From Acidobacteriota bacterium (GTDB lineage: Bacteria > Acidobacteriota > UBA6911 > RPQK01 > CBDEGM01), in NCBI GenBank assembly GCA_965237715.1, contig CBDEGM010000003.1, forward strand, positions 519,913 through 583,912: DNA of 64,000 bases, given 5' to 3'. The position numbers were made by a program, and so were the translations under genes. The notes beneath the pieces were generated by a model. It was not told the DNA's origin. It saw only the letters and a program-made list of their open reading frames with translations, and searched no databases. Positions 5,092 through 55,102 of the stretch are shown in pieces (the stretch's first letter is position 1; each line of letters starts with the position of its first letter).

Positions 5092-5634
5092 ATGCGGAAG
5101 ATCGCTTTGGTCCTTCTCTGGTGGATCCTCGCCGGGCAGCTCGAGGCGGGAAGGACTCTGAGAATTCACACAAATACTTTTTCCTTCCTGGTGACCGAGC
5201 CGGAAGGCTGGATAATCGACGCTCGGTCCGCAGTTCAAATTGCCAGTTTGGTCATGCACAAGAGAGGAACAACGTGGAGAGAAGCTGAAGTCGTCGTGTT
5301 CGCACGCTTCATCGAAAAGGCAGAGGGCGAGACCCTGGCTGACTTCGGCAAGTCACACCTGGATCACCTTGCAGAACGATGTCCACCATTGAAGATCGGT
5401 GATCTAACGCTGAAGCTGGCCGGCAAACGGAAATTTCTGACCAAGGCCTATGGCTGTCCAGAGGGCAGAAACGAAGTGGTCGCCTTCACTGAGCTCCCCG
5501 GGGTTTTTGGCGTTTTCATCCTCTCCTCCCGAGACCAGAGTGTCATTCGCTCGGCCCTGGGGCCCTTCCAAGAAATGCTGCTGTCGTTCCGGTGGCTAGG
5601 TGAAGAGGACGGTCCCGCCCTCGCTAGCCCTTAA
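5092..5634 (+). CDS. hypothetical secreted protein (N-terminal signal peptide)
   Basis: MRKIALVLLWWILAGQLEA signal-like N-terminus. No recognised domain. Confidence 0.45.
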   Translation: MRKIALVLLWWILAGQLEAGRTLRIHTNTFSFLVTEPEGWIIDARSAVQIASLVMHKRGTTWREAEVVVFARFIEKAEGETLADFGKSHLDHLAERCPPLKIGDLTLKLAGKRKFLTKAYGCPEGRNEVVAFTELPGVFGVFILSSRDQSVIRSALGPFQEMLLSFRWLGEEDGPALASP

Positions 5635-5751
5635 TTGCCGAAGTTCGACTTATACGGCAAGAAGCACGAAATCCAAAGAATCCGCATCAGCCAAGAGCTC
5701 GCAGCGAGGACTTTACGAGCATCGATTCTTGCGTGTATGCTGCCACCCATT

Positions 5752-7143
5752 ATGCGGATTCTGATCTTGGGCGGAGGGCAAGTGGGGACACTGGTTGCCC
5801 GTCGCTTGATTCGGGAGAAAAATGAAGTGGTGATTGTGGAAAGCAACGAGGAGCGCTGTGCCGACCTGGAAGAAATCCTCGATGCCAAGATTGTTCAGGG
5901 CAAAGCCAGCAGCATCACGACACTGGAGAAAGTGGGTCTGCGCCACGCCGAGATGCTCATAGCCGTCACCCGCAGCGACGAGGCGAATATCTTAGGCTGC
6001 CTCATTGCCCAGGCTCACTCCAATGTGAAGATCAAGGTGGCACGCCTGCGCACCCATGAGGTCGACCGTTGGAGAGAAATTTGTAGGAATCGTGTTTTGA
6101 ACATCGATCTCGTGATCCATCCCGACAGCGAGACTGCTCAGCGTATTCTGGGGGTGCTGGGTTTACCGGGGATCTCGGATATCGTTGAGTTTGCTGAGGG
6201 ACGAGTCAAGCTTTTCGGAATGAACATCGACGACGACAGCTGGGTGCTCGACAAGAGTATGTCGGAGCTGGACCATTCCAGTCCTCCCAAAAACTCGCTG
6301 ATGGCAATTCTTTTTCGCGGCCATCGAGCGATCATTCCGCGAAGCAACGACCGGCTGCGCGCCGGAGACCACGTCTACATTGTCGTGCCCAGTGCGGAAC
6401 TGGACGAGTGCCTGAGATTCATGGGCGTTCCCAAACCTCAGAAGGTGGAGCGAGTGTTTATTCTGGGTGGAAAGCAGCTCGGCATCGAGATCGCCCTGCA
6501 GTTGGAGAAGAAGGGAGTCCAGGTCAAAGTTTTTGAGCGAGATTTTGTCCGCTGTCAGATGATCTCGGGTCTGCTCCAGAACACCGTCGTTCTTCACGCT
6601 GACGGAACAGACCAGCGTGTTCTGGAGGAGGAAAACATCGAAGGAATTGACGCCTATCTGGCTTTGACCGGAGACGACGAAGACAATATTATCGCCTCCC
6701 TCCTGGCCAAGCGGTTGGGAGCTCGTAAGGCCGTGGCCCTTGTCAACCGACTGAACTACCTCTCCATGGCGCAACTGTTGGGAATCAATTCCACCTTCAG
6801 TACCCGCTCCACCGTAGTGGACCGGATCTTGCAGTTTGTGCGAAAAGGACACGTGCTTTCCGTGACTACCTTCCGAGAGGAAGAAGTCGAAGCCATTGAA
6901 TTGGTTGCGACACCCGGCGCGAAATACGTGGGAAAGAAGTTGAAAGATGTCCACCTTCCCCACGGAGCCATCGTGGGAGCTATCGCTCGACCTTCCGGGG
7001 AAGAGATCGTCCCCCGTGGCGAAGTCGTGATCCAGGCCGGCGACCGGGTCATTTTCGTGTGCTTGGAAAACCTGGTTGCCCAACTGGAGTCGGTCTTCAT
7101 TGGCGAACCCCACGAGGTTGCGGGTAAGAGAGAAAAAGTGTGA
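5752..7143 (+). CDS. trkA: Trk potassium uptake system NAD-binding protein TrkA (tandem RCK domains)
   Basis: MRILILGGGQVGTLVARRL Rossmann motif, then a second RCK_N (VFILGGKQLGIEIA) and RCK_C domains. ATG at 5752. Confidence 0.85.
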   Translation: MRILILGGGQVGTLVARRLIREKNEVVIVESNEERCADLEEILDAKIVQGKASSITTLEKVGLRHAEMLIAVTRSDEANILGCLIAQAHSNVKIKVARLRTHEVDRWREICRNRVLNIDLVIHPDSETAQRILGVLGLPGISDIVEFAEGRVKLFGMNIDDDSWVLDKSMSELDHSSPPKNSLMAILFRGHRAIIPRSNDRLRAGDHVYIVVPSAELDECLRFMGVPKPQKVERVFILGGKQLGIEIALQLEKKGVQVKVFERDFVRCQMISGLLQNTVVLHADGTDQRVLEEENIEGIDAYLALTGDDEDNIIASLLAKRLGARKAVALVNRLNYLSMAQLLGINSTFSTRSTVVDRILQFVRKGHVLSVTTFREEEVEAIELVATPGAKYVGKKLKDVHLPHGAIVGAIARPSGEEIVPRGEVVIQAGDRVIFVCLENLVAQLESVFIGEPHEVAGKREKV

Positions 7144-13956: not shown

Positions 13957-14008
13957 ATCCTAAATTCCAAGCACCAAGCTCCAAATAAATTCTCAATTCT
14001 AAATCCTA

Positions 14009-14095
14009 GCCTGCATTTCTCATCACCTCTCTACTGCATCGGCGTCGCCTTCACCTGAGCGAAGTGAAGAAATGATCCGTCCTGACTGCGTTGCG
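14009..14095. repeat. intergenic repeat family A copy 1 (GCCTGCATTTCTCATCAC...CTTCACCTGAGCGAAGTGAAG...CCTGACTGCGTTGCG)
   Basis: About 87 nt, roughly 90% identical to 28399..28485. Contains the internal hairpin CTTCAC-n9-GTGAAG. Confidence 0.7.
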
Positions 14096-25025: not shown

Positions 25026-25200
25026 CACTGAGTACTCTCTTTCATAAATACGGTAACGTATGCGGATGGGGCGGGACGGGCCCATCTCTTTGTTGCTCCT
25101 CCTCGCCGATGTCTCGACATCGACTCGTCGTCGCGCCTCGATCTGGTCTGGGTCGCGCTCCCAACATACGTCATCGTATTTGTAAAAGTGAGTACTTAGT
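25026..25200. mobile_element. MITE-like palindromic element, copy 1 (AGTACT-terminated, about 175 bp)
   Basis: Ends are AGTACTCTCTTTCATAAATACG ... CGTATTTGTAAAAGTGAGTACT. The reverse complement of the interior matches the first ~150 bp of 51684..51976 at roughly 90% identity. Confidence 0.7.
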
Positions 25201-25212
25201 TGTATAGTCTGC

Positions 25213-26796
25213 ATGAGTTTCAATGTTGGAATAGTCAAGACGCGAACAGAAAGGGGTTTCTCCATGGGACTTCCGCGACCCAACAACGACGCGAGCATCT
25301 TTTTGGTCAATCCGGCACCCGCAGCGGAGCGAATTCAGTTCTCTTTTATCACTCCCAGAGCCTTGCCCGTGCTGGCGGCTGCCACGCCCGAGCGTTTCTC
25401 TGAAAGACTCAGGCTGATCGATCAAACTTTGGAAGAGTTTCCCCTTGACGAACTGCGATCTGGGGATCTCGTCGGGATCAGCATCCACACCTTTAATGCG
25501 ATTCATGGCTATGAATTGGCCCGCAAGGCCAAGAAACGAGGGGCAGTGGTGGTCTTTGGCGGGCCGCACACGTCGGTCTTCCCCGAAGAGACGCTGCGCT
25601 TCGGAGATGCAGCCGTCACGGGAGATGGTGAGGTGATTTGGGAGAAGTTGCTAGAGGACTATTGGAAAGGGTCTCTGAGCACCATTTACAAAGGGGGCCG
25701 GGTCAGCCCGGGAGATTTTAGACCGGCTCGTTGGGACCTTCTGCCTCTTGAAAAGTATCTCTGTGCCTCCATCCAAACGGTGCGCGGCTGCCCGAAACAG
25801 TGCTCCTTTTGCTCGGTTTGGGTGCAGGATGGCCGCGTCCCCAGGGTTCGCACCAACGACGCCATTTTGCAAGAGGTTCAATACCTTTATCAGGCCGGGT
25901 TTCGTCTGGTGATGTTTGCTGACGATAACTTTTATCCATACACCCTAACCGACATCGAGCAGGCCCGTTCAACGGAGGAAAGAAAACAGCTGGAAGAGGG
26001 AATGGAGCACCGTTTAGAACTCCTCCGCCGCCTGGAGTTCGAGGTCCCCAATGACATGTTTTTTTGTACGCAGATCACGATGGAGGTGGCCGATGATCCG
26101 GAATACCTGGCGGCCATGAAAAAAGCCGGAGTCGCAGGTGCGTTGATTGGCATCGAAACGATTACGGAAGAAGGGTTGAAGGCAACTCGCAAGTTTTTCA
26201 ACTCCACCGGCGAAACGCTTGCACAGAAATTGGAGACAATCCGAAGAGACGGGTTCCCGTACATCATGGGAGCTTTTATCTTCGGGATCGAAAGCGATAC
26301 GATTGAGAGCCTGGACGAGACGATCCAATTTGCGAGGGACTGCGGGATTGCACTGGCCCAGTTCATTCCGATGACTCCACTGCCTGGAACCGTGGACTTT
26401 AATTTGATGAGGAAGGGAAAAAAGGCGTTTAAAGAGATCAGGCCGGATTACGACTATTGGCTCGATCCCCAACACCCACGAATTCTTTACCACCACCCGC
26501 ATATGAAGGAGGGGCAGATTCTGGAGCGAGTCGAAAGGGCCTGGAAAGACTTCTACGGTGTCTTCTCGATCTTGAAACGGGCCAAGCGCTTTCGTTTCGT
26601 CCAGGATCCGAGGAAGTTTCTGGCCTACCTTGTGGTTTGCAGGGGGCTGCTGACGCGCTACCGCCGTTACGGGCTTTCGGCCGACAGCGCGGTACGCGGG
26701 ACCAAGCGAACATTCGCCACCTTCTTGGGGCGGCTTGCCTTGTCATTGATGAAAAGGGATCGAACCGACGTGGCTTGCCAACTACAGGACATGTGA
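25213..26796 (+). CDS. B12-binding domain-containing radical SAM protein (paralog 1)
   Basis: N-terminal cobalamin-binding-like domain (DLVGISIHTFNA...VVVFGGPH). Radical SAM CxxxCxxC as GCPKQCSFCSV. Confidence 0.75.
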   Translation: MSFNVGIVKTRTERGFSMGLPRPNNDASIFLVNPAPAAERIQFSFITPRALPVLAAATPERFSERLRLIDQTLEEFPLDELRSGDLVGISIHTFNAIHGYELARKAKKRGAVVVFGGPHTSVFPEETLRFGDAAVTGDGEVIWEKLLEDYWKGSLSTIYKGGRVSPGDFRPARWDLLPLEKYLCASIQTVRGCPKQCSFCSVWVQDGRVPRVRTNDAILQEVQYLYQAGFRLVMFADDNFYPYTLTDIEQARSTEERKQLEEGMEHRLELLRRLEFEVPNDMFFCTQITMEVADDPEYLAAMKKAGVAGALIGIETITEEGLKATRKFFNSTGETLAQKLETIRRDGFPYIMGAFIFGIESDTIESLDETIQFARDCGIALAQFIPMTPLPGTVDFNLMRKGKKAFKEIRPDYDYWLDPQHPRILYHHPHMKEGQILERVERAWKDFYGVFSILKRAKRFRFVQDPRKFLAYLVVCRGLLTRYRRYGLSADSAVRGTKRTFATFLGRLALSLMKRDRTDVACQLQDM

Positions 26797-28396: not shown

Positions 28397-28398
28397 CA

Positions 28399-28485
28399 GC
28401 CTGCATTTCTCATCACTCCTCTACTGCGTCGGTGTCGCCTTCACCTGAGCGAAGTGAAGAAAGCATCTGGCCTGACTGCGTTGCG
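28399..28485. repeat. intergenic repeat family A copy 2
   Basis: gcctgcatttctcatcactcctctactgcgtcggtgtcgccttcacctgagcgaagtgaagaaagcatctggcctgactgcgttgcg. Matches 14009..14095. Confidence 0.7.
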
Positions 28486-49151: not shown

Positions 49152-49343
49152 GCTGGACGGGCTAGACTATCATCAACGAAGAAAAACTGCATGAGTGTGG
49201 TGGCGAATTCTTACTGGCCTTCTTATGGAAGCCGCCTCAGACGGCGAGGGGTAAAATCATTTGGTCAACGCGCCCTTGGAACCTGATGGAACTTGGAACT
49301 CAGCGAGCATACCTTACTATATTTAAGGAATGGTGTACGTAGG

Positions 49344-51638
49344 ATGAATCATACTCATGGGACCTGGGAGTCACTCCCCAGCCTGGTCACTGCCACCTTG
49401 TGCCTGTTCCTGTTTGGCTGTAATCATGTCTTGCCTCAGGAGCGAAGAGATACTTCCGGCGCAGAAGAGCCGGTGCCGGAAAAGCCAGCCGCATCAGAGC
49501 TGCCGAGGACCCAGACCCCGGGGCATCGCAGGATGCTCGATCTTCTCACTGAGATTGCTCGACGCACGCCGGAGGAGCATCCCTATCTGGGAGACCGGAG
49601 GGCACGTGAATTGCGGCAGCAGCTGGCGAGTTTGGACGAGGAGGAGGAGGACGCGGATCCTCTCGACCGGTGGCTACTCCACCTCCGCCTGGGAGCCGCT
49701 GAGCTGGATTTGGGGAATGTGCGAACCGGCATCGAGCATCTTTCTCGGGCTCATCAACTCCTACCCCAGGTAAAAGCGAAGATCAAACCGTTTTGGGCCA
49801 ATGAGACGATTTTCCAGCTCGGGATGGGCTACCTGCGGTTAGGCGAGATCGAGAATTGCGCGCTGCGCCACACGGCCGAAAGCTGTATTGTACCGATCCG
49901 GAAAGAAGGTGTGCATGTGCTGCAGGAAGGCTCGAGAAAGGCCATTCGGCATTTTCTCGAGTTATTGAACGAGACCTCGGAGGAAGAAGCCTCACACCTC
50001 TCGGCCCGGTGGCTGCTCAACATCGCCTACATGACGATCGGGGGCTATCCCGACGATGTGCCCGGGCGCCACCTGATCCCACCCAAGGCATTCGAATCTG
50101 AGATCGACTTCCCTCGTTTCCAGAACATTGCTCCGAAGCTGGGGCTGGACACGATGAGCTTGTCCGGAGGCGCGATCGTCGATGACTTTGACAACGATGA
50201 TTTTCTGGATATCGTCACCTCGAGCTGGGACGTTTCCGGACCGATGCGCCTGTTCCGAAACAACCGGGACGGTACCTTCTCTGAGCGCAGCCGGGAGGCC
50301 GGGCTGACGGGCCTGTATGGAGGTCTCAACCTGAAGCAAGCCGACTATGACAATGACGGCAACCTGGACATCCTGGTGCTGCGTGGCGCCTGGGCGGGAA
50401 AAGCGGGGCGACATCCCAACTCGCTCCTTCGCAACCAGGGAGACGGGACGTTTCGGGACGTGACCTTTGAGGCAGGACTGGGTGAGGTCCACTACCCGAC
50501 TCAAACGGCTGCCTGGGCAGACTACGACAACGACGGTGATCTGGACCTTTACATAGGCAATGAGGCAACGGCAGGCTTTGCCGCTCCCGGACAGCTGTTT
50601 CGCAATAACGGCGACGGCACCTTCACAGACGTAGCCGCCCAGGCGGGCGTCCAGAATCAGGGCTACACCAAAGGGGTAGCCTGGGGAGACTATAACAGCG
50701 ATCGATTTCCCGATCTTTACGTTTCCAACTACCAGGGTCCGAATCGCCTTTACCACAACAACAGCGACGGAACCTTTACGGACGTGGCGCCACGGCTGCA
50801 GGTGGGCAGGCCCAAGGTGAGTTTTCCGGTTTGGTTTTGGGATTTTGACAATGACGGCGTGCGGGATCTGTTTGTCCCCACATACGAAGGGTTCGTCGAG
50901 CATGTTGCGGCATATTACCTGGGCCTACCTCCCAAGTTTGAATTGGCTTGCCTGTATCGCGGCGACGGGCAAGGTGGATTCCAGGAGGTGGCCAAAGAGT
51001 ACAATCTCGACTATCCGATGCTTCCCATGGGATCGAATTTCGGTGATTTGAACAACGATGGCTACCTCGATTTTTACCTGGGTACGGGCGATCCGGCTTT
51101 CAAAAGCCTGATGCCCAACATCATGTTTCTGAATGATCGAGGCAAAAGGTTCACCAATGTAACTATGGGGGGCGGTTTTGGCCACCTGCAGAAGGGACAC
51201 TCGGTGGCCTTTGCCGATCTGGACAACGACGGAGATCTGGACATCTTCGAGCAAATGGGGGGCGCCTTCCCCGGCGATCCCTTCAGCGATGCTCTCTATG
51301 AAAACCCGGGGTTTGGCAATCACTGGATCACGGTAAAGCTGGTCGGGGTCCAGTCCAACCGCTCGGCATTGGGAGCTCGTATCCGAGTCGAGATCCTGGA
51401 GGAGGGAAAGATGCGGTCGATTTACCGAGACGTCGACAGCGGCGGCAGCTTTGGCGGTAATCCCCTCCGTCAAACCATCGGCCTGGGAAGGGCCAGCAAG
51501 ATTCGGGTGCTCGAGGTCTTCTGGCCGGCGACCGGGCTTACCCAAGTCTTCTCCAACATCCCTTTCGATCAGATCATTCAGATTGTTGAAGCCAGCAGCG
51601 AGTACACGACTTTGTCTCTGAAGAGGCTTCGTTTTTGA
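49344..51638 (+). CDS. CRTAC1-like lipoprotein: N-terminal helical/TPR-like region + FG-GAP repeats + ASPIC/UnbV C-terminal domain
   Basis: Lipobox LFLFGC. Repeated FDNDDFLD/YDNDGNLD/YDNDGDLD beta-propeller calcium-binding repeats. C-terminal NRSALGARIRVEI...GGSFGG UnbV/ASPIC domain. Confidence 0.7.
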   Translation: MNHTHGTWESLPSLVTATLCLFLFGCNHVLPQERRDTSGAEEPVPEKPAASELPRTQTPGHRRMLDLLTEIARRTPEEHPYLGDRRARELRQQLASLDEEEEDADPLDRWLLHLRLGAAELDLGNVRTGIEHLSRAHQLLPQVKAKIKPFWANETIFQLGMGYLRLGEIENCALRHTAESCIVPIRKEGVHVLQEGSRKAIRHFLELLNETSEEEASHLSARWLLNIAYMTIGGYPDDVPGRHLIPPKAFESEIDFPRFQNIAPKLGLDTMSLSGGAIVDDFDNDDFLDIVTSSWDVSGPMRLFRNNRDGTFSERSREAGLTGLYGGLNLKQADYDNDGNLDILVLRGAWAGKAGRHPNSLLRNQGDGTFRDVTFEAGLGEVHYPTQTAAWADYDNDGDLDLYIGNEATAGFAAPGQLFRNNGDGTFTDVAAQAGVQNQGYTKGVAWGDYNSDRFPDLYVSNYQGPNRLYHNNSDGTFTDVAPRLQVGRPKVSFPVWFWDFDNDGVRDLFVPTYEGFVEHVAAYYLGLPPKFELACLYRGDGQGGFQEVAKEYNLDYPMLPMGSNFGDLNNDGYLDFYLGTGDPAFKSLMPNIMFLNDRGKRFTNVTMGGGFGHLQKGHSVAFADLDNDGDLDIFEQMGGAFPGDPFSDALYENPGFGNHWITVKLVGVQSNRSALGARIRVEILEEGKMRSIYRDVDSGGSFGGNPLRQTIGLGRASKIRVLEVFWPATGLTQVFSNIPFDQIIQIVEASSEYTTLSLKRLRF

Positions 51639-51641
51639 TCC

Positions 51642-53339
51642 ATGAGCAAATCTCTGCTTCTGATGTTCTCCTTGGCAACTCTTAGTACTCCCTTCCATAA
51701 ATACGATGACGTATGTTGGGAGCGCGACGGAGACCAGATCGAGGCGCGACGACGAGTCGATGTGGAGACATCGGCGAGGAGGAGCAACAAAGAGATGGGC
51801 CCGTACCGCCCCAACCCTTTGGGCGGATGGGGGTTGCGGGCGATCTCTTTGTCGTTTGTCGTCGACGATGCCTCTGCATCGCCTAACGATGCCACCGCAT
51901 CGCCTCCTCCTCTCTTCGCGACCTCACCTCGCAAGCCCCATCCGCATACGTCATCGTATTTATGGAAGGGAGTACTAAGTCCGGCTCCGGGACCAACGCA
52001 ACTGCGGGCCTTCCCACAAGGGGAGGATAGTGAAGAAGCGGTGAGCTTGGCGCGTCGGTACGCCCGGGAAGAGAAGCTTCTGAAGGCCGTGTCCGAGTAC
52101 CGGCGGGCACTGCAGTGGGACCCCACTCATGAACCGGCAGCCTTGGAATTTACGAGCCTTCTCTATGGTATGGGTCGCCATAAGGAGGCCTACGCCGTCA
52201 GCCGCCAGCTCCTGCGCGATCATCCAGAGCTGCTGCGGGTACGTCTCAATTTCGCTTCTCTTCTGCAGAAGGCCGGAAAGCTGGAAGAGGCGGAAACCGA
52301 GACTCAGATGGTATTGTCGGAACTGGAAGGAAAGGTCTCCGAGGACCACCCGATTCGAGCGTACGCGCTGCACCTGCTGGGAAGGAATCGACTCAATAGT
52401 GAACGCTACGGAGAAGCAGAGAAATATTTCCTGAAGGTGATCGGGTGGAATCCCGACTTTTCCGAAGCCCATCTCAATCTGGCACAGTTGTACACACTGA
52501 TGCCGGAGAGCAAGGAGAGAGCAGTCCTGCATTTTCAGAAGGTAGTGGAACTACTGCCCGAGTCGGCATTTGCCCGCCTGAAATTTGGGGAAACCCTGCT
52601 CAATATAGGGAAGAGCCGCCAGGCCATCGCCCATCTGGAAAAGGCGGTTGAGTTGGCTCCCGATTCCGCAGCAGCGTACTATCGCCTTGCTTCCGCCTAC
52701 CGCAATGAGGGCGACATTGCAAAAACCGAACGGATTCTTTCCCGCTTTCACACACTCGACTCCAAGAACCGGTTCTGGGAGAGATCCCGGGCAAAAGCTC
52801 AGGCCTTCTATAAGGAAGGAACAGAGAATCTGAAGCGTGGCGACGTGGGTCACAACAACCAAAAGAACGTGGAAAAGGCCCTCAGGGTATTTGAGAAAGC
52901 AGTGGCACTCTCACCCGATTATCATGAAGCTCATTCCGGCCTGGCTCAAGGCTATCTGGATCTTTCCCGTCCCCGGGAAGCGCTAAACCATATTGATCAG
53001 GCTCTCTCACTGCAACCCTACGACTCCCACTGCCACTATATTCGAGCCCTCTGCCTACAGGGGCTCAGAAACATTACCGCTGCCCTCGAGGCGCTGGAAA
53101 ACGCCATCAACCTGGATCCCTCTCTGGCCCAATACCACAATCTTCTGGGGAATCTCTTCTTCAGCAACGGCCAGTACCAGGAAACCGTATCTGCTTACCG
53201 GAAGGCGGTGGATTTGGAGCCCTTGAATGCCCTGTACCATCTGAACCTCTCCTCCGCCTTAGCGAAAATTAACCGCTTCGATGAAAGCAAGAAGGAGAAG
53301 GAACGGTATCAAAAGCTTCTCACCAAACCGTCGGAGTAG
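51642..53339 (+). CDS. TPR-repeat protein; 5' region traversed by the MITE (true start may be GTG near 52036)
   Basis: About 10 TPR units from residue ~130 onward. The ORF is open through the 293-bp MITE, which begins after a signal-like MSKSLLLMFSLATL. Confidence 0.6.
   Translation: MSKSLLLMFSLATLSTPFHKYDDVCWERDGDQIEARRRVDVETSARRSNKEMGPYRPNPLGGWGLRAISLSFVVDDASASPNDATASPPPLFATSPRKPHPHTSSYLWKGVLSPAPGPTQLRAFPQGEDSEEAVSLARRYAREEKLLKAVSEYRRALQWDPTHEPAALEFTSLLYGMGRHKEAYAVSRQLLRDHPELLRVRLNFASLLQKAGKLEEAETETQMVLSELEGKVSEDHPIRAYALHLLGRNRLNSERYGEAEKYFLKVIGWNPDFSEAHLNLAQLYTLMPESKERAVLHFQKVVELLPESAFARLKFGETLLNIGKSRQAIAHLEKAVELAPDSAAAYYRLASAYRNEGDIAKTERILSRFHTLDSKNRFWERSRAKAQAFYKEGTENLKRGDVGHNNQKNVEKALRVFEKAVALSPDYHEAHSGLAQGYLDLSRPREALNHIDQALSLQPYDSHCHYIRALCLQGLRNITAALEALENAINLDPSLAQYHNLLGNLFFSNGQYQETVSAYRKAVDLEPLNALYHLNLSSALAKINRFDESKKEKERYQKLLTKPSE
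51684..51976. mobile_element. MITE-like palindromic element, copy 2 (293 bp), lying inside the 51642..53339 ORF
   Basis: Ends are AGTACTCCCTTCCATAAATACGATGACGTATG ... CATACGTCATCGTATTTATGGAAGGGAGTACT. Its first half matches the reverse complement of copy 1. Confidence 0.7.
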
Positions 53340-53341
53340 AA

Positions 53342-55102
53342 GTGGGAATCCTCAAAGGTACGCTGGGTTTTCTGCTGCTTTTTCCCGTTCTCACTGAAGC
53401 GGGGCCGGCGCAATCACCCCAGGATGCTCCTGCGTCAGTGGAATTCGTCGATGTGACCGGGGCCTCCGGAATTGATTTCCAGCATGTGAGGGCCTCGACT
53501 TCTGAGAAATACCTGGTGGAGGTTATGGGCTCCGGTTGCGCGTTTTTCGATTACGACGCAGATGGTTGGTTGGACATCTTTCTGGTGAACGGGGGCGCGG
53601 TCCCGGGCTTCCGCTACCCGGGAGCGATCGATCACGCCCTCTATCGAAATCTCGGCAACGGAAAGTTTCAGAACATGACCCGTCGATCCGGAATCCGAAA
53701 ACCATCCCACTATGGCATGGGTGTGGCGGTTGGCGATTACGACAATGACGGGTTCGATGATCTCTACCTGACCTACTTCGGAGGCCCAAACCAGCTTTAC
53801 CGCAATCGTGGAGACGGAAGCTTCGACGACGTAACCAGGAGGGCCGGTGTGGGGGGTGATGGCCAGTGGAGCACGAGTGCCGCCTTTTTTGACTACAACA
53901 ATGACGGGTTCCTGGATCTCTATGTTACCCGCTACACGGATTTTCACTATGATCGCAACCGAGTCTGTGGACCCGTGGAGAAGGGACACCGGGGCTACTG
54001 CAACCCCAAGGTTTATGATGGCGTTTCCGATCTGCTTTTCCAAAACAACAGAGACGGTACCTTCACCGACGTCAGTGTCGCCAGTGGTATTTCCGTGTTG
54101 CCGGCCAAAGGCCTTGGTGTGGTGGGAGCCGATCTCGATCAAGACGGCTGGCCGGATCTCTATGTGGCAAACGATACGGATCCGAATTATCTTTTTCGCA
54201 ACAACGGGGACGGAACCTTTCGGGAGATGGGCCTTCTGGCGGGGGTGGCCCTCAGCGAGAACGGAAAGGCACAATCGGGTATGGGTATTGGTTGTGCCGA
54301 CTATGACCGGGATGGCCTGTTCGATCTGGCCGTGACCAATCTTGACGTACCGGAATATCTTGCGGTGTATCGCAACCTGGGTCACCTCTTTTTTGAGGAT
54401 GTGAGCGCGCGACTCCGCATCAAGCGTGCCAGCAGCAGGTACGTGGGATTCGGAGTGGGATTTTTCGATTTTGATAATGATGGAGATTTGGATCTGTTTG
54501 TCGGCAACGGGCACATCAACGATGTTCTCCTGACGGGTGAGAATATCTCCCTGAAACAGCCGAAGCTCCTGTTTGAGAATCTGCGAGGGAGGTTTCGGGA
54601 AGTTGCCTCACACCACGGCGAAGCCCTGCTCGAAACACAACTCAGCCGGGGGGTGGCCTTCGGTGACTACGATAACGATGTCGATGTCGACGTTCTCGTT
54701 GCTAACGGTGGGGAGAAACCTGCACTTCTGCGCAATGACGGGGGCAATCGGAAGCACTGGCTCAGCATTCGCCTTCAGGGAACCAAAAGTAACCGCAATG
54801 GAATTGGCGCGGTTCTCACTCTGAAAACGGAAGCGGGCATTCAGAAAACCGTGCTGGCGGAAGGGGGAAGCTACCTTTCCAGCAACGATCTGAGACTTCA
54901 TTTCGGCCTGAGGGAGCAACAGAAAGTCAGTAAACTGGAGATTCACTGGCCCAGCGGCGTCGTGGATCAGATGGGGCCCATCGAATGCAACCAGTTGATT
55001 GTGGTAAGAGAAGGGACGAAACAGAAAGGGCGGCAGGTCGAACTCAATTCGGGCTCTACAGTTAACCACCAAGACACAAAGACACCAAGGTTCACAAAGT
55101 AA
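53342..55102 (+). CDS. CRTAC1-like secreted protein (FG-GAP repeats + ASPIC/UnbV domain)
   Basis: GTG start with signal peptide. YDADGWLDIFLVNGG-type FG-GAP repeats. C-terminal NRNGIGAVLTLKT...GGSYLS UnbV/ASPIC domain. Confidence 0.7.
   Translation: MGILKGTLGFLLLFPVLTEAGPAQSPQDAPASVEFVDVTGASGIDFQHVRASTSEKYLVEVMGSGCAFFDYDADGWLDIFLVNGGAVPGFRYPGAIDHALYRNLGNGKFQNMTRRSGIRKPSHYGMGVAVGDYDNDGFDDLYLTYFGGPNQLYRNRGDGSFDDVTRRAGVGGDGQWSTSAAFFDYNNDGFLDLYVTRYTDFHYDRNRVCGPVEKGHRGYCNPKVYDGVSDLLFQNNRDGTFTDVSVASGISVLPAKGLGVVGADLDQDGWPDLYVANDTDPNYLFRNNGDGTFREMGLLAGVALSENGKAQSGMGIGCADYDRDGLFDLAVTNLDVPEYLAVYRNLGHLFFEDVSARLRIKRASSRYVGFGVGFFDFDNDGDLDLFVGNGHINDVLLTGENISLKQPKLLFENLRGRFREVASHHGEALLETQLSRGVAFGDYDNDVDVDVLVANGGEKPALLRNDGGNRKHWLSIRLQGTKSNRNGIGAVLTLKTEAGIQKTVLAEGGSYLSSNDLRLHFGLREQQKVSKLEIHWPSGVVDQMGPIECNQLIVVREGTKQKGRQVELNSGSTVNHQDTKTPRFTK

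Follow-up and report, generated by a model that had tools for sequence, protein, structure and literature searches.

Correia, RUP and Nezha are TA-duplicating miniature transposable elements with inverted repeats (MITEs) derived from IS630-family insertion sequences (ISs). In-frame fusions of MITEs with genes are described as 'not unusual' in a 2024 review, which singles out the Rickettsia palindromic elements (RPEs; Ogata 2000, 2002) (PMC10969869). In Coxiella burnetii, QMITE1 and QMITE2 give rise to in-frame extensions or insertions that strain-specific indels turn on or off, as for enhC in Dugway versus RSA 493, and their effects on functional genes are reported for 3' ends, with none at the 5' ends of genes of known function (PMC5896051). 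Here we analyse a stretch of 64,000 nucleotides from an Acidobacteriota bacterium (contig CBDEGM010000003.1, positions 519,913 to 583,912), called as a whole the window below, and find that a 291-bp MITE of IS630 type sits in frame within the ancestral coding sequence of a gene for a TPR protein. The original prediction for this locus, made from the sequence alone, had regarded protein-coding capture of a MITE as rare; in view of the review above the rarity was overstated, and the case joins an established kind, the in-frame MITE fusion, as a clear but not unprecedented example.

The likeness to the RPEs described here is one of architecture. In both, a palindromic mobile repeat lies in frame in protein genes, its peptide occupies positions apparently compatible with the fold, and the event recurs in several unrelated genes. 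However, the present MITE (291 bp) is about double the size of the RPEs (~100-150 bp), it has long terminal inverted repeats (TIRs) that match an identifiable IS630-family transposon, its family is mostly intergenic with a peptide showing no sign of selective conservation, and its host is a free-living Acidobacteriota while Rickettsia is obligate intracellular. With the QMITEs it shares the overlap with annotated open reading frames (ORFs), the creation of in-frame extensions or insertions, the orphan ORFs called on the elements, and the switching of fusions by strain indels. Unlike the 3'-end effects of the QMITEs, the three intragenic cases of the present family are located at the 5' end of genes, in putative signal-peptide regions.

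The gene, its insert and its two neighbours are laid out as follows.

51642..53339, + strand: TPR-protein ORF of 565 codons, from the ancestral ATG through the MITE, with Pfam TPR families in residues ~146-561
51642..51683, + strand: ancestral first 14 codons, MSKSLLLMFSLATL, a signal-peptide-like n-region and hydrophobic core whose counterparts in the alignment are MRNSLVLLFFLATV in P0002 and a hydrophobic stretch in P0003
51685..51975, no strand assigned: MITE body GTAC...GTAC, 291 bp, missing at the orthologous site in L001 and marked by its hairpin statistics
49293..51638, + strand: upstream FG-GAP/ASPIC-UnbV gene of the operon-like cluster, whose stop codon abuts the TPR start
53342..55102, + strand: downstream FG-GAP/ASPIC-UnbV gene, with a GTG start 2 nt past the TPR stop and GGAG upstream of it

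A homology search with the whole 565-aa ORF returned two orthologues that are both without the element, P0002 (467 aa, 85% identity) and P0003 (449 aa, 66% identity), and their DNA was retrieved as L001 and L002 respectively. Both loci show the same FG-GAP/ASPIC - TPR - FG-GAP/ASPIC gene cluster as the window. The ATG of the TPR gene lies 3 nt past the TGA of the upstream gene (TGATCCATG), and this context is identical in L001, where the protein P0002 starts at the same ATG with MRNSLVLLFFLATVRPALGPTQ... while the window reads MSKSLLLMFSLATL, then 98 aa, then SPAPGPTQ.... At the nucleotide level the empty site of L001 is TTG GCA ACC GTT CGT CCG GCT, compared with TTG GCA ACT C-TTA-[291 bp]-TAA-G T CCG GCT in the window, so the net gain over L001 is 294 nt or 98 codons (291 bp and a 3-bp duplication), placed after codon 14. 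Once the insert is removed, all three orthologues have the same spacing between the hydrophobic N-terminus and the conserved IPQ/FPQ motif, and the protein length agrees exactly with both orthologues. The site is filled in the window and in L092, L159 and L160, and empty in L001 and L002. Because the element-free orthologue begins at this very ATG, within an identical context, and then runs on ungapped, it is proven that the MITE sits in frame inside ancestral coding sequence. This bears out the view, one of two offered in the original prediction, that the MITE inserted into the coding region, and the alignment with the element-free orthologues places the start of the protein upstream of the element and not downstream of 51976. 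An identical 565-aa product (P0156) is called in another assembly.

The element itself had been described as a 293-bp palindrome ended by AGTACT without a stop codon in the frame of 51642..53339, and both the ORF list and the comparison of its arms confirm this. The 293 bp at 51684..51976 are quasi-palindromic, carry AGTACT at both ends, and include one flanking base per side. The arms (51681-51773 versus 51887-51979) are 74% complementary over 93 nt. As single-stranded DNA the element folds at -98.7 kcal/mol (z = -12.9), a stability equalled by 0 of 200 shuffles, and the RNA of 51600-52060, which gives the element in its context, folds at -226.7 kcal/mol (z = -10.6). The ends and the flanking target halves are listed below.

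51684..51715, + strand: left TIR, 32 nt, AGTACTCCCTTCCATAAATACGATGACGTATG, in agreement at 24-29 of 32 positions with the termini of IS630-family ISs and other MITE families
51945..51976, - strand: right TIR, 32 nt, the perfect complement of the left TIR
51681..51685, no strand assigned: left half of the target, CTTAG, in which TTA is the putative 3-bp duplication; L001 has GTTCG at the empty site
51975..51979, no strand assigned: right target half CTAAG, containing TAA, in which the middle base differs from that of the left TTA

A 17-nt core of the TIR occurs four times in the 64-kb window against 0 expected. The TPR ORF with its 565 codons crosses the element without any stop codon, and on the whole three of the six frames of the 293-nt element are free of stops (two of six with the flanking bases). 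Dinucleotide shuffles of the element have on average 0.28 open frames, with a probability of 0.029 for two or more and of 0.044 for a given frame to be open; the openness of a single element copy is somewhat above chance, not dramatic. The MITE peptide has no match in Pfam or NCBIfam, no Sigma-70-like promoter was found in the MITE and its surroundings, and no Rfam family or tRNA was found anywhere in the 64-kb window.

Loci with the same ~32-nt end were collected by a metagenome scan with the TIR pattern and by an earlier, less specific scan of genome contigs. The latter, made with the 17-mer AAATACGRTRACGTATG, was too unspecific, most of its 89 loci being chance matches; BLAST of these loci gave real TIR matches in some only, which belong to metagenome-assembled genomes of Acidobacteriota, Terriglobia, Verrucomicrobiia, Nitrospiraceae and Opitutales. 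When the ends are paired, they delimit short elements, 269-321 bp long and unrelated in their interiors, and also elements of 1256-1303 bp (L095, L125, L137, L138, L150, L154 and L155) in which a helix-turn-helix (HTH) ORF overlaps a DDE ORF. The TIRs of these longer elements agree with the MITE TIR at 24-27 of 32 positions for the ends used in the search, and at 24-28 of 32 counting both ends. ORF2 of L138 matches the NCBIfam model NF033545 (IS630 family transposase) with 109.9 bits at a cutoff of 100, and that of L154 reaches 92 bits; in Pfam terms the DDE ORF matches DDE_3 (4.7e-13) and ORF1 matches HTH_23/28/29. Since the TIRs are common to these ~1.28-kb elements with an IS630-family transposase, the element in the window is a MITE, that is, a non-autonomous derivative, of an IS630-type transposon. 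The MITE is dispersed: the window has two copies of it, and in related assemblies dozens of ORFs are called on further ones. No full-length IS with these ends was found in the part of the host genome covered here, the 64 kb and a few loci. The IS present in L001 (2119-3357, DDE_Tnp_1/DUF772) was considered as the parent and rejected, its ends (GGATGGGAACTAG) being unrelated.

All 32 ends of 16 elements have CTW before AGTAC, and CTW flanks every end of the elements with this TIR in the window and in L010, L016, L076, L090, L095, L106, L114, L125, L129, L137, L138, L150, L154, L155, L161 and L163. On these flanks the target reads as CTWAG, with a putative duplication of 3 bp (TWA) or 5 bp. The duplication is perfect (C-TTA-...-TTA-G) in L161 and L163, and the middle base of TWA is the same on both flanks in only ~10 of 17 elements by our own count, little above chance; chimeric short-read assemblies may explain some of the IS cases with a mismatched middle base. 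A classical TA duplication is ruled out, because it would give a net gain over L001 of 293 nt with a frameshift, and the observed gain is 294. The family resembles IS630 in being bounded by TIRs, in the NF033545/DDE_3 transposase and upstream HTH ORF of its full-length relatives, and in a palindromic target similar to the CTAG of IS630, and it is unlike IS630 in the CTWAG target and in a putative duplication that spans 3 bp (TWA) or 5 bp where TA is classical.

With respect to the protein, the ORF matches Pfam TPR_19, TPR_2, TPR_8 and others with E values down to 1e-35. AlphaFold2, run with a shallow alignment, gives residues 1-126 a per-residue confidence (pLDDT) below 50 and residues 127-561 a continuous TPR solenoid of paired helices at about 90. 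Because the fold starts at residue 127 and residues 1-126 are left unmodelled, the insert appears to be at a permissive position: in this model the 98 inserted residues (15-112) lie in an unstructured tether between a putative export signal and the TPR fold. The N-termini of the three orthologues (MSK-SLLLMFSLATL, MRN-SLVLLFFLATV and ...RRGSLVLLPFLVTVGLF) have visible and conserved n- and h-regions and no clear AXA site. If the element is read through, the product is predicted to contain the junction peptides ...LATLSTPFHK and ...YLWKGVLSPAPGPTQLR. Two further in-frame codons come into question as starts.

51780..51797, + strand: internal AGGAG-N10-ATG, with the ATG at 51795, the start of the database gene call P0001 (514 aa)
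52041..52043, + strand: in-frame GTG that falls within the predicted first helix of the TPR fold (H127-142) and is an internal codon in the orthologues

Judging from the conserved gene context, initiation at 51642 with read-through of the element is the most likely outcome, because the ancestral start, coupled to the upstream stop, is unchanged from L001.

The MITE peptide also leads to the other copies of the family. With the 100-aa peptide as query, 34 proteins were matched in a word-indexed search and 70 in an exhaustive search among 1.84 billion representatives, nearly all being orphan ORFs of 50-215 aa; the two longest matches (1,273 and 1,491 aa) are weak, repetitive and near E = 1e-4. 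Most longer proteins containing the peptide are artefacts whose N-terminus has been extended across an upstream copy, as in P0004 (DctP), P0059 (MFS) and P0107, and members of the P0004 cluster of about 339 aa are without the extension. P0001 and many other MITE-derived gene calls begin with MGP(S/Y)RPNP. We also observe that gene callers repeatedly start at the MITE-internal AGGAG-N10-ATG or run genes through upstream copies (P0001, P0059, P0107, P0133 and P0135-P0142; P0004).

Two further independent in-frame insertions of the family were found, both at CTT-AGT in signal-peptide regions and with perfect TTA duplications. In L161, an FG-GAP/ASPIC gene carries an insert of 270 + 3 nt, or 91 codons, within a 675-aa ORF; no empty-site partner for this insertion was found in the cluster look-ups. 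In L163, an AhpC/TSA-like gene (GGAGGTGTC-ATG, pre-insertion N-terminus MSRHRSLSLFLAIPFVLISTAQG) is split downstream into two ORFs. The common signal-peptide location of the three insertions is suggestive at n = 3, while the frame common to the intragenic copies is an ascertainment effect, because the copies were found with the frame-0 peptide as query.

Within the element one site stands out for its length variation.

51882..51903, + strand: 22-nt segment missing in the sister strains by alignment, corresponding to a 21-nt imperfect tandem duplication (DDASASP / NDATASP) beside a CCT-repeat tract

This segment is absent from most copies of the family and present in another copy of the same genome (P0283). 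The (CCT)n tract at about 51904..51915 adjoins the 21-nt duplication, and it is exactly there that copies vary by -1 or +21/22 nt. The site is therefore the frameshift hotspot on which the readability of a copy depends. A role of the duplication as a frame restorer specific to the window was considered and is unlikely, because the P0283 copy of the same genome carries it too.

The sister strains L159 and L160, ~99% identical to the window, carry the same insertion, and for this reason the insertion is older than the split between them and the window lineage. The substitutions between window and sister are as follows.

Upstream FG-GAP gene: 8 synonymous, 4 non-synonymous; 0.5% of sites
MITE: 3 synonymous, 6 non-synonymous; 3.3% of sites
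TPR body: 6 synonymous, 6 non-synonymous
Downstream FG-GAP gene: 0 synonymous, 7 non-synonymous

The differences in the MITE are partly clustered and match variants of other copies, which suggests ectopic conversion. When polarised with L001, the TPR body has 3 synonymous changes and 1 non-synonymous change in the window lineage and 2 and 3, respectively, in the sister lineage, and the non-synonymous changes of the downstream gene fall 3 in the window lineage and 4 in the sister. Over the longer distance to L001, all three genes of the cluster are under long-term purifying selection (ratios of non-synonymous to synonymous divergence, dN/dS, of 0.16, 0.26 and 0.22).

Taking these results together, we propose that an IS630-derived MITE inserted itself by transposition between codons 14 and 15 (CTT AGT, Leu-Ser) of the TPR gene, at a CTWAG site. 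This gene is the middle one of the FG-GAP/ASPIC - TPR - FG-GAP/ASPIC cluster and would encode an exported product. The 291 bp and the 3-bp duplication would have added 98 codons with the ORF preserved, because the copy has no stop in the frame exposed by insertion at CTT-AGT. If the operon is expressed, ribosomes would start at the ancestral ATG and read through the element, giving a product with a 98-residue, probably disordered segment rich in Arg, Ser, Pro and Asp between the hydrophobic core and the first TPR helix. The reading frame of the insert would be fragile, because of the CCT-repeat tract and of ectopic conversion with other copies, and it has already collapsed in the sister strain. 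On this basis the insertion is probably a tolerated passenger, neutral to mildly harmful, in a permissive linker of a putatively exported TPR protein, and not a domesticated domain.

Several points weigh against this explanation, and most of them favour another, in which the insertion inactivated the TPR gene or the distal part of the operon and the ORF is open since the event is recent and the copy happened to be 3n and free of stops, that is, a pseudogene in waiting. The ancestral ATG has kept its coupling context as in L001, but no Shine-Dalgarno motif is present at 5-12 nt from it, and it relies on being coupled to the upstream gene. The transcribed hairpin is very stable and could impede ribosomes or attract RNase III. 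In L159 and L160 the 22 nt at 51882..51903 are lost from the MITE, so that from the ancestral ATG the frame ends as ...RIYGREC* at the right edge of the MITE, a 7-nt frameshifting deletion (52194..52200) lies in the TPR domain, and two deletions affect the downstream FG-GAP gene, one of 156 nt (in-frame by length) and one of 1 nt that shifts the frame. Because these strains keep the insertion and have frameshifting deletions, at least one lineage could do without the gene once the element was in place, and the TPR and distal genes decayed there. The non-synonymous to synonymous counts since the split are 6:6 in the TPR body and 7:0 in the downstream gene versus 4:8 in the upstream gene (Fisher p = 0.013 for downstream versus upstream), which hints at a polar or relaxing effect distal to the MITE. 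With three of six frames open (two of six with flanks), roughly one in three random insertions of this 293-nt copy would keep an ORF intact. Moreover, little time has passed since the split (dS about 0.014), so that the window lineage should have an open frame even if selection were absent. At about 0.5% divergence the sister separated too recently for neutral decay to be expected, and we do not accept the open frame as a sign of selection. On the other side, the changes polarised to the window lineage are mainly synonymous (3 to 1), all 565 codons are intact in two assemblies, the insert lies in the unstructured linker upstream of the TPR fold, and in L161, the second in-frame case, the ORF of 675 aa is fully intact; the counts in the window lineage are too small to tell relaxed from purifying selection. 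Inactivation is thus a serious alternative, which we nevertheless hold to be rather unlikely.

Three more ideas concern the start and the peptide. The original prediction had allowed that translation was displaced to a downstream GTG at ~52036; an in-frame GTG does exist, but at 52041, and a start there would cut the first TPR helix, which begins at residue 127, with no new signal compared with the orthologue. A shift to the MITE-internal ATG at 51795, giving like the GTG a TPR protein without a signal peptide, has in its favour the Shine-Dalgarno-like AGGAG 10 nt before it, the frame shared with the TPR body, and the preference of gene callers for this ATG in many copies. However, neither the ancestral ATG nor its coupling context has changed, the internal Shine-Dalgarno motif and ATG are buried in the hairpin stem, and the product from 51795 would be without the hydrophobic N-terminus conserved in all three orthologues; a moved start is improbable, although both starts could be used simultaneously, so that this alternative does not exclude initiation at 51642. 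As for the peptide, one could suppose that it was exapted as a functional module, a linker or interaction segment of exported proteins, as proposed for the Rickettsia RPEs: many diverged copies are free of stops in this same frame, three independent intragenic insertions are all in putative signal-peptide regions of exported proteins, and both intragenic size classes (273 and 294 nt) are multiples of 3. Yet the copies were retrieved with the frame-0 peptide, the matches are mostly short orphan ORFs on intergenic copies, many copies are internally deleted or shifted to a frame ending in ...RIYGREY*, AlphaFold2 gives no confident structure for the peptide, and no bias to 3n length is seen among related MITE families that share these TIRs (4 of 9, own count). 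Within the orthologous MITE the substitutions (6 non-synonymous, 3 synonymous) have a neutral look, and the sister strain no longer keeps the frame. Exaptation is therefore very doubtful, and the idea of protein-coding capture as an acquired function finds no support: we see no sign of adaptive capture, and the MITE part seems to evolve neutrally. It is likewise quite improbable, in our estimate, that this IS630-type MITE family preferentially persists in or targets Leu-Ser (CTT-AGY) codons of signal peptides, with stop-free 3n copies translated as disordered spacers and AGGAG-N10-ATG providing a second, signal-less start for exported and cytoplasmic isoforms. If true, proteins of free-living Acidobacteriota would gain novelty by an RPE-like route.

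Besides the copy in the TPR gene, the window contains a shorter one.

25031..25196, - strand: MITE copy of 166 bp, intergenic, with an rpoD-like gene on one side and a B12-binding radical-SAM gene on the other

This copy, noted before as 25026..25200, is an internal-deletion derivative with 93% identity over 136 nt, in opposite orientation to 51684..51976. The question whether it is also open in any frame is answered positively, two of its six frames being free of stops. It lies 78 nt past the stop of the rpoD-like gene and ends 16 nt ahead of the ATG of the radical-SAM gene (25213..26796), so that it may be in the 5' untranslated region or ribosome-binding-site region of the latter; its net length of 167 nt is not 3n. 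Among the homologues of the RpoD-like protein, those that carry names come from Acidobacteriota and are 67-69% identical, which makes the host an uncultured bacterium of this phylum. The related genomes appear to have at least two RpoD-like primary-sigma paralogues on one contig, with 78-87% identity to the window copy (P0165, P0166; P0167/P0172; P0173/P0164).

Other repeats are present as well. An 88-nt pair (14008..14095 and 28398..28485) is 91% identical, and palindromic GACACGAGTGTC units (14182, 18179, 35121 and 27890), AAATCCTAAATC-type units (13948, 16145 and 16170) and a 43-nt pair (8590 and 18086) are dispersed in the window; these may be further small mobile or regulatory repeats. 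In L002, the spacer just upstream of the TPR orthologue (5575..5920) contains a long perfect hairpin followed by four to five ~60-nt tandem repeats.

The locus provides a clean MITE insertion in a coding sequence, verified by an empty site and with the frame intact, from Acidobacteriota, a phylum in which such elements are little studied. It has a consequence for annotation, since starts inside the MITE or read-through of upstream copies produce false N-termini and orphan 'proteins' (P0001, P0004, P0059 and P0107). It also documents a clade of the IS630 family with a CTWAG target and a duplication of 3 or 5 bp, unlike the textbook TA. Finally, the locus is a built-in natural experiment, in which the ORF is kept in one lineage and lost in its sister lineage.

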